A DNA stretch of 64,000 bases from a bacterium. GTDB taxonomy: Bacteria; Chloroflexota; Dormibacteria; Aeolococcales; Bog-877. The notes under the pieces were generated by a model. That model was not told the origin of the DNA, searched no databases, and saw only the letters and a program-made list of their open reading frames with translations. A program made the translations under genes and the position numbers. Shown here in pieces: positions 2-54,328 of the stretch (position 1 is its first letter; every line of letters begins with the position of its first letter). The stretch is taken from contig JAJYXT010000100.1 of NCBI GenBank assembly GCA_021801645.1, positions 4,364-68,363 on the forward strand. Direction: 5' to 3'.

Positions 2-655
2 TTCGATGAGATGTCGGACGAGGATGTCCTGGCCATCTCCCGCGAGCTGCAGATGCGAACCTTCGCGTCTGGTCAGAACTGCCTGCGGGACGGGGGGGAG
101 CGCGTCTACCTGCTGAAGAGTGGGCGAGTGCGCCTCTACCAGCTCACCCCCGACGGGCATGAACTGACGACCGCCGTGGTGGTTCCCGGCCAGCTCTTCG
201 GGATCGGGTCGCTGGTGGGCCAGGCGGGGTCGACCCAGGCCGAGGTCCTGGAAGAGAGCCTCATCTGCGAGACCGGGGCCCAGGAATTCATGATGATCCT
301 GGCCCACCACCCGGTGCTCATGGCCCGGGTGGTGATGGTCATGGCGCGGCAGATCTTTCAGCTGGAGGAGGCGCTGGAGAGCCTCGCCTACAAGCCGGTG
401 CCGGTCCGTCTCGCCGAGCTGTTGCTCTCGCTGATCCCCGATTCCGAGTCAGACTCCGGCACGATTGAGCTCCCCGCCTACTCTCAGGAGACGCTGGGGC
501 AGAGGATCGGCGCCACCCGGGAGGCAGTCGCGCGCACCCTTCACGATTGGCGAGAGATGGGGCTGGTTGGCCGGGGCCGACCGCTCACCATCGCGGACGT
601 CCGAGCGCTCCGCCGGGTGTCCGAAGGGCAGCGGGCCCGGCCCGACTCAGCCTGA
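2..655 (+). CDS. Crp/Fnr-family transcriptional regulator (5' end probably outside window)
   Basis: Track ORF 11..655. It has a cNMP-binding barrel (RVYLLKSGRVRLYQ...GQLFGIGSL) and a C-terminal HTH (ETLGQRIGATREAVARTLHDW). The frame is open to nt 2, and FDEMSDEDVLAIS resembles the usual internal LF..L..eel motif, so the true start is likely upstream of the window. Confidence 0.85.
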   Translation, partial: FDEMSDEDVLAISRELQMRTFASGQNCLRDGGERVYLLKSGRVRLYQLTPDGHELTTAVVVPGQLFGIGSLVGQAGSTQAEVLEESLICETGAQEFMMILAHHPVLMARVVMVMARQIFQLEEALESLAYKPVPVRLAELLLSLIPDSESDSGTIELPAYSQETLGQRIGATREAVARTLHDWREMGLVGRGRPLTIADVRALRRVSEGQRARPDSA

Positions 656-755
656 GAGCAGGGTCCAGGGCAAGAGTGGCAGGGCCCGGTTCACCTTGGT
701 CGGACCGGCGACACGGGCCAGTCCCCGGTCCTCGTGATCCCGGGAGGCGCACGCA

Positions 756-1349
756 TTGAGGCGCAGAGGTGGCGGCACTGGCTTCGTCCGAGAGGAGATC
801 CCGCTGGCCGGGGCTGCCGTGGTCGACCCGGAGAGCCTAGAGTCACGGGATCTGGGCCGGGAACCGGGTCTCGCTCTGCTGATCCTGATCCGGCACCGCT
901 TTTGACTTCCGTGCCAGGAGCACCTCGTGCAGGTGCGGGAGCGACGGGTGGAGGTCGAGGCCCGCGGCGCCAGGGTGCTGGTGGCCGGCTTCAGCCCACC
1001 CGAAGCGCTGGCGGAGCTGCGGCGGTACCTGAGTTTGCCCTGGCCCATCCTCAGCGATGTGCAGCGGGGCATCTATGACCGTCTGGGAGTGGATCGCACG
1101 GGCTGGCGTCACGTCTACACCGCGCGAACCCTGGCACGGTATGGCCGCGCCCTGATCGGCGGTCGCGCCGTGCACCGTCCCGTCGAGGACACCCGCCAGC
1201 TCGGAGCCGACGTCATCCTGGTGAACGGGGTGGCCAGGCTCGTCTACCGTCCCGCCAGCCCCGACGACCGGCCCACGGTCGACTCGCTCCTGGAAGCGTT
1301 GGACTCTGCCGCGCACATGGCGCAGGCACGGAACAAGGCGGCCCCCTGA
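756..1349 (+). CDS. PRXL2/SelU-like (AhpC-TSA_2) thioredoxin-fold protein read through in-frame TGA 903-905 (candidate Sec, U-L-P-C)
   Basis: Track ORF 927..1349 holds the C-terminal part of the fold (LPWPILSDVQRGIYDRLGV...QLGADVILVNGVARLVY). The same frame is open from 738 except for TGA 903-905. The upstream part reads GLALLILIRHRF-TGA-LPCQEHL. TTG 756 is preceded by GGGAGG at 742-747 with an 8-nt spacer. Confidence 0.55.
920..936 (+). promoter_or_regulatory. candidate SECIS-like hairpin downstream of TGA 903
   Basis: GCACC-tcgtgca-GGTGC: 5-bp stem and a 7-nt loop containing GU, starting 14 nt after the TGA. Hairpins are frequent in GC-rich DNA, so this is weak evidence alone. Confidence 0.3.
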
Positions 1350-1446: not shown

Positions 1447-1842
1447 TCAGTCGCGGTCCACCCGAGTGCAGGAGGCGATCTCCTCAGCCTGCTCGGCCAC
1501 TAGTGCCCGACTCACCCGCAGCAGCTCCAGCACCCTGGGGTCACGCACGGAGTAGAAGGCGGAGCGACCGTCACGCCGAACGGTCAGCAGCCCGCACGTC
1601 ACCAGGCAGGCGAGGTGGGCGGCCACCCGCCCCTGAGACAGCTGGGCGTGGTGCACACACTCGGTTCCCTGTCGTTCCCCGCCGGCGCAGAAATCCAGCA
1701 GGGCCAGCCGGGTTGGGTCGCCGAGGGCACGGAAGAACTTGGCGACCAGCTGCCTCCCCACGGGGTCCGTGGGGAGGAGCGAGAGCTGGGGTTGACCGGG
1801 CACTTCCACATCCGCCGTGGTCGCGCTCAGGCCGCGCAGCAT
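1447..1842 (-). CDS. ArsR/SmtB-family metalloregulator, downstream of and overlapping merA
   Basis: 131-aa ORF with a winged-HTH signature (FRALGDPTRLALLDF...QLSQGRVAAHLACLVTCGLL). The 16-nt overlap with the merA 3' end implies one operon. Confidence 0.85.
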   Translation of the reverse strand: MLRGLSATTADVEVPGQPQLSLLPTDPVGRQLVAKFFRALGDPTRLALLDFCAGGERQGTECVHHAQLSQGRVAAHLACLVTCGLLTVRRDGRSAFYSVRDPRVLELLRVSRALVAEQAEEIASCTRVDRD

Positions 1843-3479
1843 GAGAGCCTCCCCACATCCCGGGTGAACGTCTGGGCGGCCAGCTTGAGGCTCTCGGCCA
1901 TGGTGAGGTAGGGATGGAGGGTCGCTGCCAGCTCGGCGGTCGTGATTCCATGACGGATGGCGAGGACGGCGGCCGAGATCACATCGCCCGCGCCGTCCGC
2001 CAGGACCGTGGCCCCCAGCAAGCGGCCACTGCCGGCCTCCGCCACCAGCTTCACCAGCCCCCGGGTGTCCCGGTTGACCAGCGCCCGGGGGACGGCGGAA
2101 AGCGGCATTACGGTGGTCGCGACCTCCATGGCTTGGGCCCTCGCCTGGGCCTCGGTGAGACCGGCCGAGGCCAGCTGGGGCGCGGTGAAGGTGACCCTGG
2201 GCAGCCCCAGGAGGTCCACCTCGCGGTCGTCACCCAGGACGGCGTTGCCCGCGGCCAGCTGACCCTCGTAGGCGGCTACGTAGACGAACTGCGGCCCGCC
2301 GGTCACGTCCCCGGCGGCGAACACGCGCGGGTTGGAGGTGCGCAGGTGGGAGTCGACCTTGACGGCCCCCCTCCGGTCGACCTCGACCCCGGCCAGCTCC
2401 AGCCCCAGACCAGCAGTGTTGGGGGACCGGCCGATGGCGACCAGGATCTGGTCCACCTCCAGCTCCTCCTCGCCGGCGGTGGTACGGATCCTCAGCACCC
2501 GTCCTGCGGGCCGAGTAACCACCTCCAGGACCTCCGCAGGCGCCAGGACCCGCGCCCCCTCCTCCTGCAGGAGCTCTGAGAGTAGGGCTGCGGCCTCGGG
2601 CTCCTCCAAGGGCGCCACCCGCTCCGCCACGTCGATGAAGGTCACCTGGGCTCCCAGATGGAGGAAGAGTTGGCCGAGCTCAAGGCCGATGGCGGAGGAC
2701 CCGATGACGGCCAGACGGGCGGGCACCGACGTGAGCTCAAGCGCGGTGGTGGAGGTCAGGAAGCCGCCCTCTTCCAGGCCGCGGATCGAAGGCACGGTTG
2801 AGGAGGCTCCGGTGGCCACCAGGAAGGCCCGCGCCGTGAGCGTCCTCTCGGCCACCTGGAGCACGCCTGGAGCGGTGAACCGGCCGTGCCCGGACATCAC
2901 CTCGAAGCCGTATTCGGCAACCAGATCCTGGTACTTGGCGGACCTGAGCTCGGCCACCAGCTCGTCCTTCTGGGCGACCATGGCCCGGAGATCCGGGGCG
3001 GCGGCCGACGTGGACACCCCGGCGAAGGGATGGTGCCCGGCCGCCCAGAGGGTCTCGGTGGCTCGGAGCAGGGCCTTGGAGGGAACGCAACCGACGTTCA
3101 CGCAGGTGCCGCCCAAGGTCCCCTGCTCCACCATGCCCACGCGCAGCCCGCCCTCGGCGGCCCGGATGGCGGCGGCGAAGGCCGCGGACCCCGAGCCCAC
3201 CACCAGCAGGTCGAAGTCGGTCCCCGGAGCCATTGGGCCGGGCAGTTCACCGGCGCGCGCCAGCGCCCCCGGGTGGTAGCCGGCGGCCTCCACGGCGGCC
3301 CGGAGCGGCTGCTCCACGACGCCCTCGGGGAGCGAGAAGCGAGCTCGCCCAGCTCGCCAGTCCACGGAGACCTGGCGCGCCCCGGCCCCGGTGAGAGCCT
3401 CTGTGACGTGGCGAGCGCAATCGTCGCAGGTCATGCCCGCGACCTCCAGAGTGAACCTCGGATCGGCAGTCCGGCTCAT
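1827..3479 (-). CDS. merA: mercuric reductase with N-terminal HMA domain
   Basis: HMA motif GMTCDDC, disulfide-reductase active site GGTCVNVGCVPSK and a C-terminal SCCAA cysteine pair. Start placed at ATG 3479 (MSRTADPRF), preceded by GGGAGGG; the track ORF extends to 3551. Confidence 0.9.
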   Translation of the reverse strand: MSRTADPRFTLEVAGMTCDDCARHVTEALTGAGARQVSVDWRAGRARFSLPEGVVEQPLRAAVEAAGYHPGALARAGELPGPMAPGTDFDLLVVGSGSAAFAAAIRAAEGGLRVGMVEQGTLGGTCVNVGCVPSKALLRATETLWAAGHHPFAGVSTSAAAPDLRAMVAQKDELVAELRSAKYQDLVAEYGFEVMSGHGRFTAPGVLQVAERTLTARAFLVATGASSTVPSIRGLEEGGFLTSTTALELTSVPARLAVIGSSAIGLELGQLFLHLGAQVTFIDVAERVAPLEEPEAAALLSELLQEEGARVLAPAEVLEVVTRPAGRVLRIRTTAGEEELEVDQILVAIGRSPNTAGLGLELAGVEVDRRGAVKVDSHLRTSNPRVFAAGDVTGGPQFVYVAAYEGQLAAGNAVLGDDREVDLLGLPRVTFTAPQLASAGLTEAQARAQAMEVATTVMPLSAVPRALVNRDTRGLVKLVAEAGSGRLLGATVLADGAGDVISAAVLAIRHGITTAELAATLHPYLTMAESLKLAAQTFTRDVGRLSCCAA

Positions 3480-3497
3480 CGGCCGCCCTCCCAGCGC

Positions 3498-3525
3498 ATA
3501 TCTATTCGGATAAGCGGATAATAGC
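3498..3525. promoter_or_regulatory. AT-rich divergent merA/glcD promoter region with tandem direct repeat CGGATAA-G-CGGATAA
   Basis: catatctattCGGATAAgCGGATAAtag stands out from surrounding GC-rich DNA in the 95-bp gap between divergent merA and glcD. The repeat copies lie at 3507-3513 and 3515-3521. The regulatory role is inferred only. Confidence 0.35.
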
Positions 3526-3574
3526 ACGCAAGTGATGGCCCGCGGCAGCATCGGTCCGGCGGGCGGCCTAGGAT

Positions 3575-10493: not shown

Positions 10494-11933
10494 TCAGCCG
10501 GACTGCCGCCGGACCCAGGCCCGCCCGCGGCGCAGCTGCTCCGCCGCCCGCCGAAGGGCGTCCAACTGGGCCTCCGGGCCCGGCGCCCCGGGCTGCTCCC
10601 GGGCGGCGAGGGAACGCCTGGGATCCAGCAGCCCCGAGGGGTCATCGGCAAACCCCATCTCCCGCCAGCTCTCGCCAAGCACGAGGTCGAGCCCCCTCCC
10701 CTCGGCCTCCGCCCGGCTCACCAGCCTGCCCACCAGCTCGTGGGCCCGGCGGAAGGGGACCCCTTCCTGCACCAGTCGATCGGCCAGGTCGGTGGCCAGC
10801 AGCCGCGGATCGGAGGCCGCCTCGGCCATCCTCTCCCGGTTGAAGGACACCTCCCCCAGCAGACCGGCCAGCGCCTCCAGGCTGGCCTCCACCGAGGCCA
10901 CCGCGGGAAAGAGGTGGGCCTTGTCCTCCTGGAGGTCCCGGTTGTAGCTGAGTGGGAGCCCCTTCAGGACCAGCAGTAGGCCCAGGAGCGCGGCCACCGG
11001 CCTCCCCGTCCTCCCCCGCACCAACTCCAGGAGGTCCGGGTTCTTCTTCTGGGGCATGAGGCTGGAGCCGGTCGACCAGCGGTCGGGAAGGTCCAGAAAG
11101 CCGAACTCGGCGGTGCTCCAGAGGATCAGGTCCTCCGCCATTCGCGAGAGGTGGATGGCGACGAGGGCGCTGGCGAAGAGGAGCTCGAGGGCGAAGTCAC
11201 GGTCCGAGACCGAGTCCAGGCTGTTGGCCGTCGGCGCCCGGAGTCCCAGCTCGAGGGCGGCCGGGTGGCGGTCCAGGGGCAGGGTGGAGCCGGCCAGGGC
11301 TCCCGCCCCCAGGGGGGAGAGCCCGGCCCGCCGGTGAAGCTCCTGAAGGCGCTCCCGGTCCCGCTCCAGCATCTCGAAGTACGCCAGCAGGTGATGCGCC
11401 AGGGTCACCGGCTGAGCCCGCTGCAGGTGGGTGTATCCCGGAATCAGGGTCGCCCGCTCCCGCCGGGCACGGCGGAGCAGGACAGCCTCCAACTCGAGCA
11501 CCCCCTGGGACACACGGACGGCCGCGGCCCTGGTCCAGAGCCGAAGGTCCAGGGCCACCTGGTCGTTGCGGCTCCGCCCGGTGTGCAGCCGAAGGGCGGG
11601 CTCACCGATCAGCTCGGCCAGCCGGCGCTCCACCGCCATGTGGATGTCCTCGTCCTCGGGCCGGGGCCGGAAGTTCCCTGAGCGCACCTCCTGGGCGATC
11701 TGCTCCAGCCCGGACAGCAGCTGCTCTTGCTCTTGGGGCTGGATGAGCCCCGCGCGGGCGAGCCGGCCGGCGTGGGCCGCCGAGCCCCGGATGTCGAACT
11801 CGGCGAGGCCGAGGTCCTCCTGGACGGAGGTGGAGTACCGCTCCAGCACGGGGTCGGTCGGGCCCTGGAGCCGCCCGCTCCAGGCCTTGGGATGAGCGGG
11901 CCCACCCGGCGTCCGGTCAGCTCCCGGAGGCAC
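10494..11933 (-). CDS. argH: argininosuccinate lyase
   Basis: WSGRLQGPTDPVLERYSTSV...SRNDQVALDLRLW...GYTHLQRAQPVT...GSSLMPQKKNPD. Start set at in-frame GTG 11933; the track ORF extends to 12272 inside argG, so the exact start is uncertain. Confidence 0.9.
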   Translation of the reverse strand: MPPGADRTPGGPAHPKAWSGRLQGPTDPVLERYSTSVQEDLGLAEFDIRGSAAHAGRLARAGLIQPQEQEQLLSGLEQIAQEVRSGNFRPRPEDEDIHMAVERRLAELIGEPALRLHTGRSRNDQVALDLRLWTRAAAVRVSQGVLELEAVLLRRARRERATLIPGYTHLQRAQPVTLAHHLLAYFEMLERDRERLQELHRRAGLSPLGAGALAGSTLPLDRHPAALELGLRAPTANSLDSVSDRDFALELLFASALVAIHLSRMAEDLILWSTAEFGFLDLPDRWSTGSSLMPQKKNPDLLELVRGRTGRPVAALLGLLLVLKGLPLSYNRDLQEDKAHLFPAVASVEASLEALAGLLGEVSFNRERMAEAASDPRLLATDLADRLVQEGVPFRRAHELVGRLVSRAEAEGRGLDLVLGESWREMGFADDPSGLLDPRRSLAAREQPGAPGPEAQLDALRRAAEQLRRGRAWVRRQSG

Positions 11934-13212
11934 CGGGCTCCTCGGTACCGGGAGCGGCGGCGATCCCCCGGGGCGCCGACTGCAGCAGCGGGCGAGAGTC
12001 CTCCCAGAGACGCCCCTGCACCTGAGCCTGGGTCCTGAGGGGCAGGCCGAAGATCGAGAGGAAGCCAGTGGCCGCCTGGTGCTGGAACCGGTCGTCCTGG
12101 CGCTCATAGGTGGCCAGCTCGCGCCGGTAGAGCGAGCTGGGACTGCTCCGACCCAACAGCACGAGCGCCCCCTGGCGGAGGCGCAGCCGCACCTCGCCGG
12201 TGACCAGCGGCTGGGTGCTGGCCACGAAGGCCCCCAGGCTCTGCCGCAGGTGGGAGAACCAGAGGCCGTCATAGGTCAGCTGGGCCCACTCGTCCGCCAC
12301 CAGCCGCTTGAAGCGCAGCACATCCCGAGGCAGGGTGAGGGCCTCCAGCTGCCGGTGGGCCGTGTCCAGCACAACCGCGGCCGGCGCCTCGTAGATCTCC
12401 CTCGATTTGATACCCACCAGCCGGTCCTCGACGTGGTCGATCCGGCCCACCCCGTGGGCTCCCGCCAAGCGGTTGAGCGACTCCACCAGCTCCACCCCGG
12501 ACAGCTCCTCCCCATTCAGCCGGGTGGGGATGCCCGCCTCGAAGTGGATCTCGACCTCGACCCCCTCGGGAGGAGCCGATTCCGGGGCCGTGGTCCACTC
12601 GTATGCGGACTCTGGCGGGGACACCCAGGGGTCCTCCAGGATCCCGGTCTCGACACTGCGACCCCAGAGGTTGGCGTCGATGCTGTAGGGGCTCTCCACG
12701 GTCGCCCGAACCTCCAGCCCGTGGGTGGCGGCGTAGGCGATCTCCTCGCTCCGTCCCATGCTCCACTCGCGCAGGGGGGCGACCACCTGGAGGGCCGGGG
12801 CCAGAGCCCCCACAGCCACGTCGAAGCGGACCTGGTCGTTGCCCTTCGCGGTGCAGCCGTGGGCGACAGCGCTGGCCCCAACCTCCCGAGCCACCTCAAC
12901 CAGGAGCCGGGCGATAAGCGGGCGCCCCAGGGCGGTGGCCAGCGGGTACACGCCCTGGTACACCGCCCCAGCCTGCAGGGTGGGCCAGATGAAGTTGGAA
13001 ATGAGGAGCTCCTTGGCGTCCACCACGTGCGCCGCCACGGCCCCGGCGGCCAGGGCCCGGCGCTGAAGCGCCTCGGTGTCCTCGGTCTCCCCCAGGTCCG
13101 CGGAGAGGGTCACTACCTCAAAGCCCCTCTCGTGGGTCAGCCAGTGGACGGCCACGGTGGTGTCCAGCCCACCGGAGAACGCAAGAACGCAGCGGGGCCG
13201 TTCGGTGGTCAC
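11917..13212 (-). CDS. argG: argininosuccinate synthase
   Basis: CVLAFSGGLDTTVAVHWL...AHGCTAKGNDQVRFD. GTG start 13212 is preceded by GGAGGA. Confidence 0.95.
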   Translation of the reverse strand: MTTERPRCVLAFSGGLDTTVAVHWLTHERGFEVVTLSADLGETEDTEALQRRALAAGAVAAHVVDAKELLISNFIWPTLQAGAVYQGVYPLATALGRPLIARLLVEVAREVGASAVAHGCTAKGNDQVRFDVAVGALAPALQVVAPLREWSMGRSEEIAYAATHGLEVRATVESPYSIDANLWGRSVETGILEDPWVSPPESAYEWTTAPESAPPEGVEVEIHFEAGIPTRLNGEELSGVELVESLNRLAGAHGVGRIDHVEDRLVGIKSREIYEAPAAVVLDTAHRQLEALTLPRDVLRFKRLVADEWAQLTYDGLWFSHLRQSLGAFVASTQPLVTGEVRLRLRQGALVLLGRSSPSSLYRRELATYERQDDRFQHQAATGFLSIFGLPLRTQAQVQGRLWEDSRPLLQSAPRGIAAAPGTEEPGASGS

Positions 13213-13216
13213 AGTC

Positions 13217-13714
13217 TCATCCTCCTCTGGCTGGCAGCACCGGCGACGGGACGGCGTTCTCCTGGCAAGCGTGGCGCAGCCGCTCCACCACGGTCTTGGC
13301 CTCGCGGGCCGACCGCGCCTGGACGAAGATGGTGTCGTCGCCGGCCACCGTGCCCGCCACCTGGGGCAGCCGGAGGGAGTCGACCGCTAGCGCCACCACC
13401 TGGGCGGCTCCGCTGGGGGTGTGCAGGATGACCATGGAGCCGACGACGTCGATCTCCAGGAGCTGGAGGGCCAGGAGCTGCAGAAGTCGGCCCTGAGGCT
13501 CGGGGTCGGCGGGGGGGATGTATCGCCGCTCGGACCCTGCCACGGCCCTGAGGACCCCGAGCTGGCGCAGGTCCCGACTGATGGTGGTCTGGTCAGCGGC
13601 GATCCGCCGGCGGTGAAGCTCGTCGGCGAGCTCCTCCTGAGTGCGGACCGGCCGGGTGCGCAGCAGCTCCAGAATGGCCGCCTGGCGCTCGCGCCGGGCT
13701 TCAGCGGAAGTCAA
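13217..13714 (-). CDS. argR: arginine repressor
   Basis: N-terminal winged HTH (RQAAILELLRTRPVRTQEELADELHRRRIAADQTTISRDLRQLG) and a C-terminal oligomerisation domain (GTVAGDDTIFV). It lies inside the arg cluster. Confidence 0.9.
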   Translation of the reverse strand: MTSAEARRERQAAILELLRTRPVRTQEELADELHRRRIAADQTTISRDLRQLGVLRAVAGSERRYIPPADPEPQGRLLQLLALQLLEIDVVGSMVILHTPSGAAQVVALAVDSLRLPQVAGTVAGDDTIFVQARSAREAKTVVERLRHACQENAVPSPVLPARGG

Positions 13715-14913
13715 CCGCAGTCCCCGGCGCGCTCAAGTGCCTTGGCGAGCCGCGCCACCGCCAGCTCCACCTCATCGTCCGAGATCACAAGGGGCGGAGC
13801 GAGGCGGATGGTCCGGTCGCCGATGGCATTCACCAGCACCCCCTCGGACAGCGCCTCCTGAGCCACCAGAGCGGCGATTGGGCGGTCCAGACCCACCCCG
13901 AGGAGCAGCCCCCGGCCGCGCACATCGGAGACAGGCAGACCCCTCTGGGCCAGACCCAGGATCCCCTCCCGGAGCTGATCCCCAGCGGTCGCCGCCCGCT
14001 CCCAGAGCCGGTCGCGGCCGATCACCTCGAAGACCGCGCGCCCGGCGGCGCAGGCGACCGGGTTGCCCCCGAAGGTGCTCCCGTGGTCGCCGGGTTCCAG
14101 GACGTCGGCCCGACCTGACACCAGCACGGCCCCCAGGGGCAGCCCCCCGCCCAGCCCTTTGGCGGCCGTCATGACGTCCGGCACCGCGCCCGCCGGCTGG
14201 TGGGCCCACCAGCTGCCGGTGCGGGCCATCCCGGACTGGACCTCATCGAGGATGAGGAGCGCCTCGTACCGGTTGCAGAGCTCGCGCAGCTCCCTGAGGT
14301 ACGGGTCACCCAGCGGATGCACCCCGCTCTCGCCCTGGACGGGCTCGGCCATCACCGCCACCGCCGGCCGGAGTTCGTCAGAGAGGGCCGCCTCCACGGC
14401 GGCCAGGTCACCGCGCGGCACCTGGAGGAAGCCCGGGGGAAGCGGCTCGAAGGGTTCGGAGTAGTGGGGGTTGCCGGTGGCCGCCAGGGTTCCCAGGGTG
14501 CGGCCATGGAAGGCACCCTCCAGGGTGACTATGGTGTAGGCCCCCCCGCGGTGCAGCTGGCCCCACTTCCTAGCGATCTTGATGGCCGCCTCGTTGGCCT
14601 CGGCACCGCTGTTGCAGAGGAAGACCCGACCCGGAAAGGCGGTCTCCACCAGCCGTGCGGCCAGCTCCAGGGGCTCGGCGGTGTGGTAGAGGTTGCTGGT
14701 GTGCATGAGCCGGTGGAGCTGCGAGCTGGCCGCCTCCACCACCTCGGGGTGGCAGTGTCCCAGGACGTTGACCGCGATCCCGCCCACCAGGTCCAGCAGC
14801 CTTTGGCCGTCCTCTGTCTCCACCCAGCAGCCCTCTCCGGACACCAGGGTGACGGGGAGCCGGCGGTAGGTGTCGCAGAGCAGCGCGCCTTCACGCTCCG
14901 CCAGCGCCGGCAC
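13711..14913 (-). CDS. argD: acetylornithine aminotransferase
   Basis: Class-III aminotransferase motifs (FLCNSGAEANEAAIK, LILDEVQSGMARTG, TFGGNP). It overlaps the argR start by 4 nt. Confidence 0.9.
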   Translation of the reverse strand: MPALAEREGALLCDTYRRLPVTLVSGEGCWVETEDGQRLLDLVGGIAVNVLGHCHPEVVEAASSQLHRLMHTSNLYHTAEPLELAARLVETAFPGRVFLCNSGAEANEAAIKIARKWGQLHRGGAYTIVTLEGAFHGRTLGTLAATGNPHYSEPFEPLPPGFLQVPRGDLAAVEAALSDELRPAVAVMAEPVQGESGVHPLGDPYLRELRELCNRYEALLILDEVQSGMARTGSWWAHQPAGAVPDVMTAAKGLGGGLPLGAVLVSGRADVLEPGDHGSTFGGNPVACAAGRAVFEVIGRDRLWERAATAGDQLREGILGLAQRGLPVSDVRGRGLLLGVGLDRPIAALVAQEALSEGVLVNAIGDRTIRLAPPLVISDDEVELAVARLAKALERAGDCG

Positions 14914-14914
14914 C

Positions 14915-15808
14915 TCAGCCGGCCTCCGGGGGATCGATCATCGTGCCCACCCCGGCCTCGGTGAGCAGCTCGAGCAGGATGGAGTGGGGTTCCCTGCCGT
15001 CGATGATGTGGACCGCCACCCCGGCCCGGGCCGCGCTGCAGGCGGCCTGGAGCTTGGGGATCATCCCAGAGCTCGCCGTCCCATCCGCGAGCAGCTGCTC
15101 CGCGGCTCCCACCGGCAGCCGACTGAGCAGCCGCCCATCGCGGTCCCGGACCCCCTCCACGTCGGTCAGGAGCAGCAGCTTGGCGGCCCCCAGCTCCTCG
15201 GCGAGAGCGGCCGCCACCCAGTCGGCGTTGACGTTGTAGCTGCGCCCGTCGTAGCCCAGCCCGATCGAGGCCACCACCGGGATCATCCCCCGCTCAAGGA
15301 TCCCCAGCAGCGGGTCGGCGTTGACCTCCTGGACCTCTCCCACCAGCCCCAGATCCTCCCCCTGAGGTCCCATCTGGCGCCGCACCAGGATGGTCGGCCC
15401 GTCCTCACCCGAGAGCCCCATGGCCCGGCCCCCCAGCCGGTGGATGGCAGCCACCAGGTCCGGGGTGATCTTGCCGGTTAGGACCATCTTGGCCACCTCC
15501 ATGGTGGGCTCGTCGGTGACCCGGAGGCCGGCCACGAACTGGGTGTCCAGGCCGAGCCTGTCCGACAGCGCGGTGATCTCGCGCCCACCGCCATGCACCA
15601 GGACGGGGCGGAGGCCCACGAAGCGCAGCAGGACGAGGTCCTGGAGGACCGCGTCTCGAGCTGCGGGCTCCTCCATCGCCGCGCCCCCCAGCTTGACCAC
15701 CAGGGTTCGCGCGTGGAAGCGCTGGATGTAGGGCAACGCCTCCACCAGCACCTGGGCACGCAGGCTGTCGGGAATGTCCGGGGTGAGCTCAGGTTGAGTA
15801 GTCGGCAT
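14915..15808 (-). CDS. argB: acetylglutamate kinase
   Basis: TLVVKLGGAAM...VLVHGGG...NVNADWVAAALA are amino-acid kinase family motifs, in arg-cluster context. Confidence 0.9.
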   Translation of the reverse strand: MPTTQPELTPDIPDSLRAQVLVEALPYIQRFHARTLVVKLGGAAMEEPAARDAVLQDLVLLRFVGLRPVLVHGGGREITALSDRLGLDTQFVAGLRVTDEPTMEVAKMVLTGKITPDLVAAIHRLGGRAMGLSGEDGPTILVRRQMGPQGEDLGLVGEVQEVNADPLLGILERGMIPVVASIGLGYDGRSYNVNADWVAAALAEELGAAKLLLLTDVEGVRDRDGRLLSRLPVGAAEQLLADGTASSGMIPKLQAACSAARAGVAVHIIDGREPHSILLELLTEAGVGTMIDPPEAG

Positions 15809-17015
15809 TGATCCTCACGTAGTCGGCGCTGAGGTCGCAGCCCAGGGCGCTCGCCCCGGCCTCCCCCACGCCCAGGTTGACCTCGATCACGACCCGCTCG
15901 GCGAGAAGCCGGGGGGCCACCCGTTCCACCGCTCCCGGCACCACCTGCCCCCGGGTGAACAGCTCCTCGCCCTGCATCGAAAGCCGGCAGCGGTCCAGGG
16001 CCAGCTCCGCGCCTGAGCGCCCCACCGCCGCCAGCACCCGGCCCCAGTTGGGGTCACCGCCGTGGACGGCGGTCTTCACCAGCGGGGAGCTGCTGACGCA
16101 GCGCGCCGCGAGGAGGGCGTCATCCGGACTGGCGGCGCCGGAGACCCGGACCTCGAACACCCTTGTGGCCCCCTCGCCGTCCGCCACCACCTGCTCAGCG
16201 AGCGACCCCAGCACCGCGTCCAGCGCCTCCTCGAACTCCTCCCACCCGGCGGTCCCGGGCGTGAGCGCGGGGGAGCCGGTCGCTCCGCTGGCGAGCAGCA
16301 GGCAGCAGTCGTTGGTGCTAGTGTCGCCGTCCACGCTGATGCGGTTGAAGGTGTGGCCCACCACCCGGGCCAGCAGCTCGCGGAGCGCCGACGCCGGCAC
16401 TGCGGCGTCCGTGGTCAGGAACGCCAGCAGGGTTGCCATGTCGGGATGGATCATCCCCGAGCCCTTGGCCATCCCCCCGAGGTGGTGGGTGACTCCGAAC
16501 GCCGAAAACTCCACCCCCGCCTCCTTGGACCGGGTGTCGGTGGTCATGATGGCCCGGGCCGCGTCCGCCCCCCGTCCCGGCCCAAGGTCGGCGGCGGCAC
16601 GGGCGATTGCGGGCACGATGCGCTCCATGGGCATCGGCCGCCCGATCACGCCGGTGGAGGCGACCAGGACCTCGTGGGGGGCACAGTCCACGCTGTCGCC
16701 GGCGGCCTGGGCCATGCGCAGCGCGTCCCCCAGGCCCCGCGACCCGGTGGCGGCGTTGGCGTTGCCGCTGTTCACCACCACGGCCCGGGCCGTCCCGCGG
16801 CGCAGGTGCAGCTGGCTCACCACTACCGGGGCGGCCTTGACCCGGTTCCGGGTGAAGACGCCGGCGGCGGTGGCCAACCGGTCGGAGACCAGGAGCGCGA
16901 CGTCAGGGCGGCCCAGGCTCCCGTCCCGGACACCGGCCGCGGCCACCCCGGCGCTGAAGCCAGCGGCCATGGTCACCCCCACTGAGGGACGGGTCACCGG
17001 CTGGCTCACGGCCAT
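15789..17015 (-). CDS. argJ: bifunctional ornithine acetyltransferase / N-acetylglutamate synthase
   Basis: Start set at ATG 17015 (MAVSQPVTRPSVGV); the track ORF extends to 17693. Autoprocessing-region sequence MIHPDMATLLAFLTTDA and a C-terminal INADYST are present. Confidence 0.9.
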   Translation of the reverse strand: MAVSQPVTRPSVGVTMAAGFSAGVAAAGVRDGSLGRPDVALLVSDRLATAAGVFTRNRVKAAPVVVSQLHLRRGTARAVVVNSGNANAATGSRGLGDALRMAQAAGDSVDCAPHEVLVASTGVIGRPMPMERIVPAIARAAADLGPGRGADAARAIMTTDTRSKEAGVEFSAFGVTHHLGGMAKGSGMIHPDMATLLAFLTTDAAVPASALRELLARVVGHTFNRISVDGDTSTNDCCLLLASGATGSPALTPGTAGWEEFEEALDAVLGSLAEQVVADGEGATRVFEVRVSGAASPDDALLAARCVSSSPLVKTAVHGGDPNWGRVLAAVGRSGAELALDRCRLSMQGEELFTRGQVVPGAVERVAPRLLAERVVIEVNLGVGEAGASALGCDLSADYVRINADYST

Positions 17016-18031
17016 TGGGGCCTCCGACCGATCCCGGCTGTTACCTCCAGCCCCAGGCGCCAGTTGAGCGCCTGGACCGCCTGCCAGGCGGCTCCCCGCC
17101 CGAGGTTGTCGAGGACCGCCTCGACCACCAGATGGGATCCCTGAGAGTTGAGGTGGATGAAGGTGTGGTTGGTCCGGCTGGCCAGCTTGGTGGGGACGGG
17201 ATCCTCGACCAGATGGACGAAGGGGCTGGCCCCGTACGCCAGCCGGTACTCCCGGAGCACGCGGTCCAGGGCGACCCCTTCGTCCCAGCGCAGATAGCAG
17301 GTGACGCAGATACCCCGGGTCATGGGCACCAGGTGGGGCACGAAGGTGACTTCGACCACGGTTTGCGAAAGCTCCGAGAGCGCCTGCTGGATCTCGGGCT
17401 GGTGGCGGTGTCCGGGCACGGCATAGGGGAGCACCGCCTCGTCCAGCTCGGCGAAGAGGTATGCCGGCCCGGCTCCCCGGCCGGCGCCGCTGATCCCGGT
17501 CTTGCCATCCACCACCACCGCCGGCTGGACCAGCCCAGAGCGGAGGGCCGGGGCGGCGGCCAGGATGGCGGCGGTGGCGAAGCACCCGGGGAGAGCGACG
17601 ATGCGTCCTGCCCGGGAACCCAACTCCAGCTCCGGGACAGTGAGCTCCGCCTCCCGGAGCAGCTCCGGGGCGGGGTGCTCCCGGCCGTACCACGTCGGGT
17701 ACAGGCCGGGATCCCGGAGGCGGAAGTCGGCCGAGACGTCTATCACCACAGCGCCGCTGTCCACCCAGCTACCCGCCTGGGCGGCGGCCTCGAGTGGGGA
17801 CTGGGCTGAGATGACTACGTCTAGGCGGGTGGGGTCTAGCTCCTCGGTTAGCTCCAGATCGCAGCCGGAACCCGGGCACGCCTCCCGGTGCACCCGGCCG
17901 GCCTGTCTGCGGGAGCTGACCTGGGTGAGTTGCGTGAAGGGGTGCTCCAGGAGCAGGCTGACAACCTCGGCGCCCGCGTATCCCGTAGCTCCTGCCACCC
18001 CAACCCGGGGCGCGCCCGCTGCCTGCTCCAT
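17006..18031 (-). CDS. argC: N-acetyl-gamma-glutamyl-phosphate reductase
   Basis: VGVAGATGYAGAEVVSLL and the active-site region ALPGCFATAAILA. It is the first gene of the arg operon. Confidence 0.9.
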   Translation of the reverse strand: MEQAAGAPRVGVAGATGYAGAEVVSLLLEHPFTQLTQVSSRRQAGRVHREACPGSGCDLELTEELDPTRLDVVISAQSPLEAAAQAGSWVDSGAVVIDVSADFRLRDPGLYPTWYGREHPAPELLREAELTVPELELGSRAGRIVALPGCFATAAILAAAPALRSGLVQPAVVVDGKTGISGAGRGAGPAYLFAELDEAVLPYAVPGHRHQPEIQQALSELSQTVVEVTFVPHLVPMTRGICVTCYLRWDEGVALDRVLREYRLAYGASPFVHLVEDPVPTKLASRTNHTFIHLNSQGSHLVVEAVLDNLGRGAAWQAVQALNWRLGLEVTAGIGRRPQWP

Positions 18032-37955: not shown

Positions 37956-39164
37956 TCAGGCGTTGACCTCGACCAGCGCCAGGTGATGGTGCTGCTGCAG
38001 ATAGGCGCGCACCGCCAGCAGCGCGGCGGCCCCCTCTCCCACCGCCGAGGCCAGCTGCTTGGTGGAGCCCGCGCGCACGTCACCGGCCGCGTAGACGCCG
38101 GGCATGGACGTGCGGTAGGCCAGATCGGTGCTGACGAAGCCCCAGCGATCCAGCTCCACCACCCCGCGCAGGACCTCGGAGTTGGGGGTGAGCCCGACGA
38201 ATACGAAGACCGCGGCCGGGTGCCAGACGTACTCCTCGCCGGTGTCGGAGTTCCGGGCGAGGACCTCCTCCACCCGGGTCTTTCCACGGATCTCGGTCAG
38301 CTGGGTGGAGGTGTGGACCTCGAACCTGGGGTCGGAGGCCACCTTGTCCTGCAGGAGCCTCGAGGCCGTGAGCTGGCTCTGGTTCTGCACCAGCCGGATC
38401 CGGCGCGCGAACTTGGCGAGGAACAGTCCCTCCTCCAGGGCGGCGTTGCCGCCCCCCACCACCAGGATCTCCTCGGCCCCACGGTAGAAGGGGCCGTCAC
38501 AGGTGGAGCAGAAATGCACCCCCGCTCCCAGGAGCTGGTCCTCGCCGGGGATCCCCAGCCGGCGGTAGGTGGAGCCGGTGGCGAAGAGGACGGCGTGGGC
38601 ACCCAGCAGCTGCCCCCCCGCCAGCGCCACCTGGAGGTCCTCGCCGGAACGGTCGACTGAGGCCACCCGGGCCCCGGCCACCAGCTCCACCTCGTAGCGG
38701 CGGGCCTGGGCCACGAAGCGCTCCATCAGCTCCGCACCCCCCACCCCGTCCGGGAACCCGGGATAGTTGTCGATGCGCTCGGTGACGCCGGCGTTTCCCC
38801 CCAGGCCGCCGGAGTCTATGATCACCGCCGAGATACCCTCCCGGGCGGCGTAGATGGAGGCGGCCAGACCGGCCGGTCCCCCGCCCACGATGACCAGGTC
38901 GTAGGCCTTGTGGCTCGCCTCCACCTGGATCCCCAGCTTGCGCGCCAGCTCCTCGTCGCTCGGTTCAAGCAGGTGGGAGCCATCGGGAAAGACGATGGTG
39001 GGAATGGTCCGACCACCGCCCTGGAGCTTCTCCACGAACTCCAGGCCGCCCGTGTCCTGGTCGATGTCCACCCAGCCGTACTCGATCCGGTGGGAGCTGA
39101 GGAAGGCCTTGCTGCGCTGGCAGTCCGGGCACCAGGGAGCGCCGTAGACGGTGATCTGGTTCAT
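37956..39164 (-). CDS. glutaredoxin/NrdH-like domain fused to a thioredoxin-reductase-like flavoprotein
   Basis: N-terminus ITVYGAPWCPDCQRSKAFL (CPxC redoxin). This is followed by VIVGGGPAGLAAS (FAD), the redox pair HFCSTCDG, VVGGGNAALEEG and AAGDV. Confidence 0.85.
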   Translation of the reverse strand: MNQITVYGAPWCPDCQRSKAFLSSHRIEYGWVDIDQDTGGLEFVEKLQGGGRTIPTIVFPDGSHLLEPSDEELARKLGIQVEASHKAYDLVIVGGGPAGLAASIYAAREGISAVIIDSGGLGGNAGVTERIDNYPGFPDGVGGAELMERFVAQARRYEVELVAGARVASVDRSGEDLQVALAGGQLLGAHAVLFATGSTYRRLGIPGEDQLLGAGVHFCSTCDGPFYRGAEEILVVGGGNAALEEGLFLAKFARRIRLVQNQSQLTASRLLQDKVASDPRFEVHTSTQLTEIRGKTRVEEVLARNSDTGEEYVWHPAAVFVFVGLTPNSEVLRGVVELDRWGFVSTDLAYRTSMPGVYAAGDVRAGSTKQLASAVGEGAAALLAVRAYLQQHHHLALVEVNA

Positions 39165-51917: not shown

Positions 51918-52057
51918 CGGGGTCTCACCTAACGGAGCGTCCTGTGGCTTGCGGGCCAGTTTAGACCCGCCCGGGGAGAGGGATGCGGGGAGGAAAGGCG
52001 GCCCGGCCGGTAACCTTGTGGGCCGTGCGCAGTGTCGAGACGTTTGAGGTGCAGGTG

Positions 52058-54328
52058 ATGGCGCCGGCGGTCGGAGATCCCGGCCGTGCAGAGGCGATGC
52101 CCAAGGTGGCCTACTTCTCGCCCGAATTCGGGGTGAGCGAAGACCTCCCCCAATACTCGGGGGGATTGGGGGTGCTGGCGGGCGACTACCTCAAGGTCGC
52201 GGCGGCCGAGGGGCGTCCCCTGGTGGGGGTCGGCCTCTTCTACCACCTGGGGTACTTCCACCAGCGGTTGGGCCGAGAGGGCTGGCAGGAGGAGGTGTAC
52301 GAGGAGCTCGACCCCGCCGGGCGCGGGCTGGAGCCGGTCCCGGGCCCCGGGATCGAGGTGGCGATGGGCGGCGTCACAGTCCAAGCGCTGGTCTGGCGGC
52401 AATGGGTGGGAAGGGTTCCGCTCTACCTCCTGGACACGACCGGGGCGGACAACTCCGAGGAGGCACGCCAGATCACCGACCGCCTCTACGGCGGCGATGT
52501 CGAGCACCGTCTACTGCAAGAGATCCTGCTGGGAGTCGGCGGGGTCCGGGCCCTCCGGGCGGCGGGTGAGGATCCCACCCTCTTCCACAGCAACGAGGGG
52601 CACGCCGGCTTTCTGGTCCTGGAGCGGCTGCGGGAGCTGGTCCAGGACCGCGGCCTGGGCTTCGACGAGGCCGTTGAGCTAGTTCGGGCGGGGACCGTCT
52701 TCACCACCCACACCCCGGTCCCGGCCGGCATCGACCACTTCCCACGGGAGCTGATGGAACGGTACCTCGGCGGCTTCTGCGCCGATCTGGGAATCCCCGT
52801 GGACCGGCTGATGTCCCTCGGGCACTTCCCCGGAGAGGAGCCCGGCGCGCCGTTCAACATGGCGGTCTTCGGGCTGAGGATGTCCGGAAGGGCCAACGCG
52901 GTCTCCGAGCTCCATCGCGAGGTCAGCCAGGAGATGTTCCGCAGGCTGTGGCCGGGGCTGGGCGCCAGCGAGATCCCCATCGCCGCGGTCACCAACGGCG
53001 TGGACGTGCGCTCCTGGGCCTCGCCGGAGGCGGCCGCTCTACTGGACACCCGGCTGGGGCCGGGTTGGGACCGGGCCGGCGAGGCGGACTTCTCCGACCT
53101 CCTATCGGTGCCCGGACCCCAGCTCTGGGAGATGCGCCAGCCCGGACGCCAACGGCTGATCAGAGCTGTCCGAGAGAGGTTGCGCCACTCTCTGCGCAGG
53201 CAGGGAGTCCCGGATCCCGAGCTGGAGTGGACCGACCGGGCGCTGGACGAGGGCGGCATCCTGGTCGGATTCGCCCGCCGGGTGGCGACCTACAAGCGGG
53301 GAAATCTGCTTTTCAGCCAGCCGGAGCGGCTGCGGCGGCTGCTGCTCGACCCCCAGCGGCCGCTGCAGCTGGTGTTCGCCGGCAAGGCGCACCCCAAGGA
53401 CGAGGAGGGCAAGCGCATCATCCAGCAGCTGGCCCAGGCCGCGGGGGAGCTGGAGCTGCGCTCGCGCCTGGTCTTCCTCGAGGACTACGACCTGGCTCTC
53501 GCCCGGGTGATGTACCAGGGAGCTGACGTGTGGCTCAACACGCCCCGGCGCCCCATGGAGGCCTGCGGCACCAGCGGGCAGAAGGCTGCCGTGAGCGGCG
53601 CCATCAACCTTTCAATCCTGGACGGCTGGTGGGACGAGGGTTACCAGGAGGGCAACGGCTTCGCCATCCCCTCGTTTGAGGACGAGGCGGATCTGGCCAC
53701 CAGGGATCGGCTGGAGGCCGAGGCGCTGTTCCAGCTGCTCGAGGACGAGGTGCTCCCCGCCTTCTACGAACGAGGGCCGGACGGGCTGCCGGAGAGGTGG
53801 CTGCAGACCCTGCGGCGGTCGATGGCCACGGTGACGCCGCTGGCGCTGGGATCCAGAATGCTCGAGGATTACGTGCGCCGCCTCTATCTGCCGGCGGCCA
53901 CCTCCAGGGGGCTGCTGGAGGCAGGCGACGGGCGCGGGGCGCTGGCTCTGGCCGGGTTCCGGGCCCAGGTCCGGCGCAACTTCACAAACGTCCGGCTGGC
54001 CGCTCGCAGCCGCCCGCTCGCCCCCGGGGGCGAGCGGCTGGTGGAGGCCGTGGCAGAGCTCGGTGAGCTCCGCCCCCACCAGGTCGAGGTCCAGCTGCTG
54101 CACGGGCCGGTGACCGAGGACGGGCAGCTGGCGCCGGCCGCGGTGGAGACCATGCTCCTGGACCAGACCGCGTCCAACGGCCGCGCGCACTACCGAGCCC
54201 TGCTTTCCCCGATGGCGGCCGGCCGGTACGGATTCGCGGTACGGGCCCTGGCCGCCCCGCCACTCCCGGAGCCGGTCGCTCCCGACTCGCCGGTGGTCAT
54301 GGCTGAGCCTCTGCGCCTGCGGCGATGA
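52058..54328 (+). CDS. glgP: alpha-glucan (glycogen/maltodextrin) phosphorylase, GT35
   Basis: KVAYFSPEFGVSEDLPQYSGGLGVLAGDYLK...TTHTPVPAG...FARRVATYKR...TSGQKAAVSGAINLSILDGWW. ATG 52058 is preceded by GAGGTG; ATG 52097 is an alternative start. Confidence 0.9.
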   Translation: MAPAVGDPGRAEAMPKVAYFSPEFGVSEDLPQYSGGLGVLAGDYLKVAAAEGRPLVGVGLFYHLGYFHQRLGREGWQEEVYEELDPAGRGLEPVPGPGIEVAMGGVTVQALVWRQWVGRVPLYLLDTTGADNSEEARQITDRLYGGDVEHRLLQEILLGVGGVRALRAAGEDPTLFHSNEGHAGFLVLERLRELVQDRGLGFDEAVELVRAGTVFTTHTPVPAGIDHFPRELMERYLGGFCADLGIPVDRLMSLGHFPGEEPGAPFNMAVFGLRMSGRANAVSELHREVSQEMFRRLWPGLGASEIPIAAVTNGVDVRSWASPEAAALLDTRLGPGWDRAGEADFSDLLSVPGPQLWEMRQPGRQRLIRAVRERLRHSLRRQGVPDPELEWTDRALDEGGILVGFARRVATYKRGNLLFSQPERLRRLLLDPQRPLQLVFAGKAHPKDEEGKRIIQQLAQAAGELELRSRLVFLEDYDLALARVMYQGADVWLNTPRRPMEACGTSGQKAAVSGAINLSILDGWWDEGYQEGNGFAIPSFEDEADLATRDRLEAEALFQLLEDEVLPAFYERGPDGLPERWLQTLRRSMATVTPLALGSRMLEDYVRRLYLPAATSRGLLEAGDGRGALALAGFRAQVRRNFTNVRLAARSRPLAPGGERLVEAVAELGELRPHQVEVQLLHGPVTEDGQLAPAAVETMLLDQTASNGRAHYRALLSPMAAGRYGFAVRALAAPPLPEPVAPDSPVVMAEPLRLRR

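Follow-up and report, generated by a model that had tools for sequence, protein, structure and literature searches.

Does a UGA codon that splits an otherwise open reading frame end translation, or does it specify selenocysteine (Sec)? The question is raised by a gene near one end of a 64,000-nucleotide stretch of DNA (hereafter, the window) from a member of the Dormibacteria (Chloroflexota; assembly GCA_021801645.1, contig JAJYXT010000100.1, positions 4,364 to 68,363 of the forward strand). An original prediction, made from the sequence alone, recognized there a selenoprotein gene hidden from the open reading frame (ORF) caller, with Sec in the first position of a U-x-x-C motif. Comparison with related loci bears this out: TGA alternates with Cys codons at the position in question, both flanks of the TGA are conserved and a hairpin follows it. 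On these comparative grounds we put the probability that codon 50 of the gene (UGA, 903–905) is decoded as Sec at about 0.87. The kind of bacterial selenoprotein is already known, and the encoded protein is a new member of it that had escaped annotation; the result is a correction of annotation, not the description of a new system.

Alternation of TGA and cysteine codons among relatives

We collected 65 further loci through one scan of GTDB representative genomes and one of Joint Genome Institute (JGI) metagenomes, and aligned the codon equivalent to codon 50 over 66 motif-bearing loci. It is TGA in 51, TGC in 9, TGT in 5 and TGG in 1; one of the two scan patterns demanded Cys or Trp at this codon, so these counts are, if anything, biased against TGA. 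Conservation at the protein level runs across the TGA, as IRHR(F/Y)-U-LPCQEH. The TGA forms share 32–70% identity with the window protein; their sources are metagenome-assembled genomes (MAGs) labelled Actinomycetota, Pseudonocardia, Acidimicrobiia/Ilumatobacteraceae, Microthrix, Chloroflexota and Dormiibacterota. The Cys forms come from some Acidimicrobiia and one Deltaproteobacteria MAG. For two relatives called in truncated form, the close relative L002 (70% identical) and L003 from an NCBI MAG (52% identical), the surrounding DNA has the in-frame TGA at the equivalent codon and conserved sequence on its 5′ side. Close as well as distant relatives carry TGA here, rather than the TGC or TGT that would have pointed to an error or a recent mutation in the window.

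Protein databases hold the family mostly in truncated form. Used as a query, the read-through sequence brought up 47 relatives, of which nearly all have 125–140 amino acids (aa) and match only its C-terminal 50–70% (60–74% for database homologues overall); a search with a full-length Cys form (P0032, 175 aa) returned 382, and about 110 of the best 120 were stumps of roughly 130 aa, named 'hypothetical protein', 'peroxiredoxin' or 'AhpC/TSA'. Such short C-terminal homologues are the usual sign of a gene split by UGA. P0032 reads HRHLA-C-LPCQEH, and all of the Cys homologues P0032, P0048–51, P0132 and P0144 have CLPCQEH with Cys aligned to codon 50; the full-length Cys homologues are single polypeptides. 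The homologous region does not begin near residue 58, where the called ORF starts: the upstream strand and the motif are conserved, as the original prediction implied. Judged from these searches, the Sec form dominates the family and is systematically miscalled.

In two of the loci, the motif regions of a TGT form (L048) and a TGA form (L054) are near-identical, which resembles a recent exchange between Sec and Cys.

Extent of the gene

In the window, only the TGA at 903–905 interrupts the frame between 738 and the stop at 1347–1349, and the preceding in-frame stop is a TGA at 735–737. The conceptual product runs LALLILIRHRF up to the interrupting codon and LPCQEHLVQV after it. At 70.7% GC an open upstream frame is not significant in itself; the 49 upstream codons, however, show the same GC pattern over the three codon positions (0.78/0.51/0.76) as the downstream part (0.78/0.50/0.86), and the N-terminal pattern IPLAG...DLG...LLILIRHRF is conserved in L002, L003 and others. 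Between the window and L002, 20 of these 49 codons are identical, 10 differ synonymously and 19 non-synonymously.

Translation probably starts at TTG 756. The Shine–Dalgarno-like GGGAGG before it has a related counterpart in L002 (GTGAGGCACATGC versus GGGAGGCGCACGC), and the alternative start GTG 819 would cut away the conserved IPLAG block. The landmarks of the original prediction (the stop at 735–737, GGGAGG, TTG 756, TGA 903–905 and GTG 927) were all reproduced from the sequence, the ORF list and the translation. The gene is very probably 756–1349, with TGA 903–905 as codon 50, and the 140-aa call from GTG 927 is a miscall.

A thioredoxin fold with predicted selenocysteine at the helix start

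Reading through the UGA restores a recognizable domain. With the stop replaced by Cys, the sequence matches Pfam AhpC-TSA (PF00578) at 33.5 bits over residues 26–116, compared with 17.6 bits without read-through (cutoff, 26). We modelled the Cys homologue P0032 with AlphaFold in place of the Sec-containing window protein (pLDDT, 95.6; pTM, 0.91). In the model, a strand (residues 29–33) encoded 5′ of the Sec codon leads through a short loop to Cys39, the Sec equivalent, which lies just before a helix (residues 40–51). Foldseek placed the model nearest to BCP/PrxQ, ResA/TlpA, AhpE and human PRXL2B (PDB 9usa; TM-score, 0.71; root mean square deviation, 2.7 Å). A start at GTG 927 had been predicted to delete the redox motif and the first strands of the fold; indeed, by Pfam and the P0032 model, the 140-aa ORF lacks strands 1–3 and the U-x-x-C.

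In a profile of five full-length sequences, U50 and C53 fall on the first and second Cys, respectively, of the CxxC motif in ResA/TlpA. C53 is present in every motif-bearing locus, although the search pattern required PC and its presence there is therefore partly built in. Against the T-x-x-C of BCP/PrxQ, the same profile aligns U50 with Thr and C53 with the peroxidatic Cys. The window protein shares the fold of typical peroxiredoxins, including the Sec-containing ones with T-x-x-U, but in it the predicted Sec takes the position of the Thr and not that of the peroxidatic Cys. According to the model, Sec50 sits at the N terminus of helix 1, the attacking first position of a thioredoxin-type CxxC. 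The 'redox-active position' of the original prediction holds in this thioredoxin sense and does not extend to the peroxidatic Cys of peroxiredoxins, which corresponds to C53.

We also considered a classical peroxiredoxin and rejected it, as the PxxxTxxC motif is absent: the stretch reads R46-H-R-F-U50-L-P-C53, with Sec in place of Thr and Arg in place of Pro.

A hairpin conserved downstream of the UGA

A hairpin starts 14 nt downstream of the UGA, and G927 and U928 in its apical loop are positions 25 and 26 when the U of UGA is counted as 1. The original prediction had drawn a hairpin at 920–936 and proposed it as a Sec insertion sequence (SECIS); the structure exists, although it is better drawn with 6 base pairs and a CGUGC loop, and comparative data back the proposal. 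Folded alone, positions 916–940 reach −8.9 kcal/mol. RNAalifold, run on 12 window-type relatives, found the same helix independently, with 96% pairing. The closing pair is G–C in six of them and C–G in four, by way of synonymous Leu codons (CTG/CTC) matched by Gln-CAG/Glu-GAG. A divergent relative from the Acidimicrobiaceae (L029, 34% identical) has a helix at the same columns built from a different sequence (UCACGCC/GGCGUGA). The window-type set together with L029 shows 96.7% pairing and four compensatory pairs, values that none of 500 shuffles reached.

A second clade, recognized by H-x-x-AVRD, has its hairpin 6 nt further downstream, with 8 base pairs and the same CGUGC loop, so that GU lies at 31–32 instead of 25–26. 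Five pairs of this hairpin are compensatory and 26 cells are compensated; none of 500 shuffles did as well, and sliding the partners against each other makes the pairing collapse. Compensation includes a synonymous Asp codon (GAT/GAC) that tracks ATC/GTC, and the paired codons are Val-GTG/His-CAC, Ala-GCG/Arg-CGC, Leu-CTG/Gln-CAG and GTC/GAA; in the alignment, these amino-acid pairings make sense only as RNA pairing. One locus (L037) combines the window-type protein motif with the hairpin of the second clade.

Over the family, the energy of the best hairpin averages −10.7 kcal/mol over 42 Sec forms and −4.8 kcal/mol over 12 Cys forms (Mann–Whitney p = 0.002, uncorrected for phylogeny), and the distant Cys forms L011, L012, L040, L041 and L046 have no hairpin. 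Like the SECIS of Escherichia coli fdhF, the window element is a stem-loop directly 3′ of the UGA inside the coding sequence (CDS), and its apical loop holds a G and a U, which in fdhF are G23 and U24. It differs from the fdhF type in its shorter stem (6–7 base pairs) with no bulged U evident, and in the sister clade the loop is displaced by 6 nt. A scan of the window at Rfam gathering thresholds gave no match, which is uninformative because bacterial SECIS elements are poorly represented there; their sparse coverage in Rfam has been noted (preprint 10.64898/2026.04.03.716425). We regard the hairpin as a plausible SECIS candidate supported by comparison of sequences.

Selenocysteine weighed against other explanations

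Several observations count against Sec. No gene for its decoding was recognized in the DNA searched: ARAGORN found no tRNA-Sec in the window and 52 locus flanks, Pfam found no selA, selB or selD among 30 of the larger ORFs of the window, and the roughly 9 kb that precede the window on its source contig (JGI 3300039716 Ga0438459_0000474, 75,348 bp) contain no selA, selB, selC or selD. A tblastn search with approximate E. coli SelA, SelB and SelD sequences, which is a weak search, returned nothing at E ≤ 0.01 from the window and 69 loci (458 kb). These absences are uninformative because only contig fragments were searched. Locus L001 has a real TGG (228–230) at the aligned codon; its 198-aa protein (P0004, 46% identical to the window protein) reads IRHRF-W-LPCQEH, and the hairpin is kept despite the TGG. 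The Trp codon may reflect an inactive copy or an error of sequencing, or it may be a substitution that is tolerated.

The hairpin itself has weak points. That of the window is short (6 base pairs) and does not stand out by itself (z = −1.1; 29 of 200 shuffles reach as stable a fold), and three of the four compensatory pairs of the window-type hairpin depend on the single divergent L029. Cys forms that are near to Sec forms (L018, L036, L048 and L069) retain the hairpin. Part of this could be inherited coding sequence, and retention is expected after a recent exchange between Sec and Cys.

Among the other explanations, the one that fares best is read-through without selenium, in which a near-cognate or suppressor tRNA inserts Trp, Cys or Arg and the hairpin only slows termination; we consider it very unlikely. 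The TGG of L001 means that Trp can be encoded at the site in at least one contig, and Sec machinery is not among the genes found in the fragments searched. By contrast, TGA alternates with Cys at the first CxxC position (14 Cys versus 1 Trp), which is an accepted signature of Sec, whereas Trp would abolish the redox chemistry, and the position and GU loop of the hairpin fit bacterial SECIS elements. Actinomycetota with documented Sec machinery, furthermore, include Mycobacterium (PMC13449736) and the acidimicrobial Actinomarina (preprint 10.64898/2026.04.03.716425).

Slightly less credible still is that the UGA is a true stop and the 140-aa product from GTG 927 is real, alone or with a separate 49-aa upstream peptide. 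Gene callers choose this product, and termination by release factor 2 (RF2) always competes with Sec insertion, so that some truncated upstream peptide is probably made. The 140-aa product, however, would be without strands 1–3 and the whole U-x-x-C motif, and the full-length Cys homologues are single polypeptides. Its start is the GUG within the apical loop of the hairpin, with no Shine–Dalgarno sequence noted upstream, and in the aligned set the called starts of truncated homologues fall at differing nearby codons that are not conserved.

The least credible explanation of all is a pseudogene or assembly error, in which the TGA arose by recent nonsense mutation or stands for a TGC/TGT that was miscalled, and the full-length protein is not made. 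The window alone would be insufficient to exclude it and L001 differs at the site, but 51 independent loci, drawn from different samples and from three phyla, have TGA at the exact codon, and both of its flanks are conserved at the protein level. A nonsense mutation would not recur at the one redox-active codon where the other homologues have Cys.

A reassigned genetic code was ruled out, because UGA is an ordinary stop in the window, where TGA ends 45 of the 53 predicted genes. A scan of the window for other frames split by TGA (GC content at third codon positions ≥ 0.80 on both sides) gave only antisense shadows of real genes, with a filter that also missed 756–1349.

Relationship to known selenoproteins

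Similar Prx-like (peroxiredoxin-like) UxxC selenoproteins have been catalogued since 2004–2008. A 2026 review (PMC13188914) lists a Prx-like thiol:disulfide oxidoreductase (PF00578; UxxC/UxxU) as a high-confidence prediction, credited to its reference 12, together with several other thioredoxin-fold UxxC families; the 2008 Global Ocean Sampling (GOS) survey (PMC2398784) uses the label 'Prx-like 1'. The window protein resembles this class in its thioredoxin/Prx fold, its match to PF00578 above the cutoff and its U50-L-P-C53, and it is predicted by the same logic of Sec/Cys pairs and SECIS. A read in the 'Prx-like 1' section of GOS Dataset S1 (JCVI_READ_1092963558137; ...VVLIFHRHIHULPCTEHVIAVSDRL...; PMC2398784) matches L059 and L060 across the TGA with as much as 61% identity; against the window protein, identity is 37% over a stretch of 54 residues (E = 2 × 10^−7). 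For a typical member (...YRGHWUPYC...), on the other hand, BLASTP detects no similarity to the window protein. Going by these comparisons, the 'Prx-like 1' bin is a heterogeneous class and not a tight family, and the window protein falls in a distinct subgroup within it, marked by RH-x-x-U-LPC-QEH, PVEDTRQLG and SPDDRP and found mainly in Actinomycetota. We found no separate description of the RH-x-x-U-LPC-QEH subgroup in the literature searched.

The best curated hidden Markov model is NF040769, 'SelL-related redox protein' (106.7 bits, E = 1 × 10^−30, residues 38–181 against profile positions 25–172 of 173). Its cutoff of 120 is missed by both the window protein and P0032 (101.7 bits); under the NCBI rule, the window protein counts as a relative and not as a member. 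The redox motif of the window protein lies in the same place as in the NF040769 profile. SelL carries U-x-x-U and forms a diselenide; the window motif, by contrast, is U-x-x-C with one Sec. Eukaryotic selenoprotein L is itself a Prx-like protein (PMC2398784). The term 'SelL-related' did not occur in the literature searched.

The original prediction had assigned the gene to PRXL2/SelU. Kinship of fold is real, in that PRXL2B is a Prx-like fold of the CxxC type and a structural match, and many homologues carry a precomputed match to PF13911 (AhpC-TSA_2). The family label, however, is only approximate: PF13911 scores 20.3 bits on the read-through sequence and 21.4 on the truncated one, below its cutoff of 27, and structures of BCP/PrxQ and ResA/TlpA match equally well or better. 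Pfam AhpC-TSA, NF040769 and the literature class Prx-like 1 UxxC are better anchors.

Proposed mechanism

From these features we infer how Sec might be inserted and used. The gene would encode one 197-residue cytoplasmic thioredoxin-fold protein of the Prx-like/SelL-related group. Following the bacterial paradigm, SelB·GTP·Sec-tRNASec would bind the GU-containing apical loop of the hairpin, and the bound complex, competing with RF2, would bring Sec to the UGA. In the protein, position and fold suggest that Sec50 is the attacking residue and Cys53 its resolving partner. The protein would then cycle between a selenol/thiol form and an intramolecular selenenylsulfide, reducing a disulfide, a peroxide or a similar oxidized substrate. 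Re-reduction could come from a thioredoxin-type system, for which an adjacent flavoprotein disulfide reductase may substitute in several relatives.

A bolder proposal, which we think unlikely, is that the RH-x-x-U-LPC-QEH/PVEDTRQLG proteins form a distinct, unnamed family in which Sec predominates, widespread in Actinomycetota that are largely aerobic and acting as the substrate-facing half of a pair whose reductant is a dedicated, adjacent class-I flavoprotein disulfide reductase. In the lineage of the window, whose neighbour is a MerA under an ArsR-type regulator, the selenol might then serve in handling Hg(II) or other soft metals instead of reducing peroxides or disulfides.

Implications for annotation

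Hundreds of database entries of the family are stumps of about 130 aa, and current models rescue none of them, their NF040769 scores staying under the cutoff. They could be corrected with a dedicated model that flags the Sec position, which would also add a selenoprotein marker for MAGs of Actinomycetota, Chloroflexota and Dormiibacterota. Unusually, the family has far more Sec than Cys forms. Its two clades, with loops offset by 6 nt and each covarying, provide a compact case for drift of SECIS position inside a CDS, and the recurring flavoprotein disulfide reductase neighbour is a candidate electron donor. What is known of the mechanism of Sec decoding is unchanged by these findings.

Genomic context

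A class-I flavoprotein disulfide reductase with the motif GGxCxxxGCxPSK lies within 3.5 kb of the family member in 11 of 65 loci, often directly adjacent and on the same strand (L040, L046, L049, L051, L054, L055 and L058). The three reductases that were examined have no C-terminal Cys pair and fall below all NCBIfam cutoffs. This arrangement suggests that the neighbouring reductase may recycle the selenenylsulfide, as a candidate dedicated reductant.

In the window, the selenoprotein gene is flanked by a Crp/Fnr-family regulator and, convergently, by ArsR/SmtB and MerA genes (Table 1). The corresponding Crp genes in L070, L002 and L001 match Pfam cNMP_binding and HTH_Crp_2. The MerA translation shows the HMA motif GMTCDDC and a C-terminal CC pair, and L002, which comes from the same sample, has the same layout as the window. 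Mercury-related families are among the other selenoproteins of the 2026 review (PMC13188914), and a functional link between the selenoprotein and its ArsR/MerA neighbours is conceivable.

Table 1. Features of the predicted selenoprotein gene and its surroundings (window coordinates), with the placement of the reductase gene in other loci
Feature	Position	Strand	Remarks
CDS of the predicted Prx-like/SelL-related selenoprotein	756..1349	+	197 codons including Sec50; stop TGA 1347–1349; conceptual translation
Truncated 140-aa ORF (gene-caller product; P0001 identical)	927..1349	+	Miscall; GTG start
Shine–Dalgarno-like GGGAGG	742..747	+	Read from the sequence; 8 nt before TTG 756
Probable start codon TTG	756..758	+	First start codon after the stop at 735–737; 5′ of the conserved IPLAG block
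In-frame UGA, predicted Sec codon (U50)	903..905	+	TGA/Cys pairing in relatives; corresponds to the first CxxC Cys in ResA/TlpA
TGC, Cys53, putative resolving partner in U-L-P-C	912..914	+	Invariant in five full-length sequences; present in every motif-bearing locus
SECIS-like hairpin	920..936	+	6 base pairs, G920–C936 to U925–A931; apical loop CGUGC 926–930
Crp/Fnr-family regulator, directly upstream	11..655	+	NCBIfam Crp/Fnr matches, all below cutoffs
ArsR/SmtB metalloregulator, convergent with the selenoprotein gene	1447..1842	-	NF033788, 68.7 bits (cutoff, 55)
MerA with N-terminal HMA domain (flavoprotein disulfide reductase)	1827..3551	-	TIGR02053, 544 bits (cutoff, 454)
Class-I reductase relative to the family member in other loci	Upstream: L040, L046, L049, L051; downstream: L050, L054, L055, L058	Opposite strand: L062	

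A conserved block lies 5′ of the Crp gene both in L070 (4088–8465, on the same contig and upstream of the window start) and in L002 (1–3480). Encoded in it are a 461-aa pyridine nucleotide-disulfide oxidoreductase, a methyltransferase, a CDP-alcohol phosphatidyltransferase and a radical-SAM protein that carries a Zn_ribbon_HMPTM domain.

Further into the window, positions 37959–39164 (− strand) encode a 402-aa protein with an N-terminal glutaredoxin domain fused to Pyr_redox_2 (thioredoxin-reductase-like). An arginine biosynthesis cluster occupies 11920–18031 (− strand), in the order argG, argR, argD, argB, an argJ-sized gap and argC. MMPL, a DSHCT-type helicase, DUF4081 and aminoacyl-tRNA synthetases are found elsewhere in the window; gene content of this sort would suggest Actinomycetota. 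A 567-aa DUF6909 protein (54325–56025, + strand; 608 bits) is encoded directly after a distant glycogen-phosphorylase-like gene (51983–54325), with the stop of one overlapping the start of the other.

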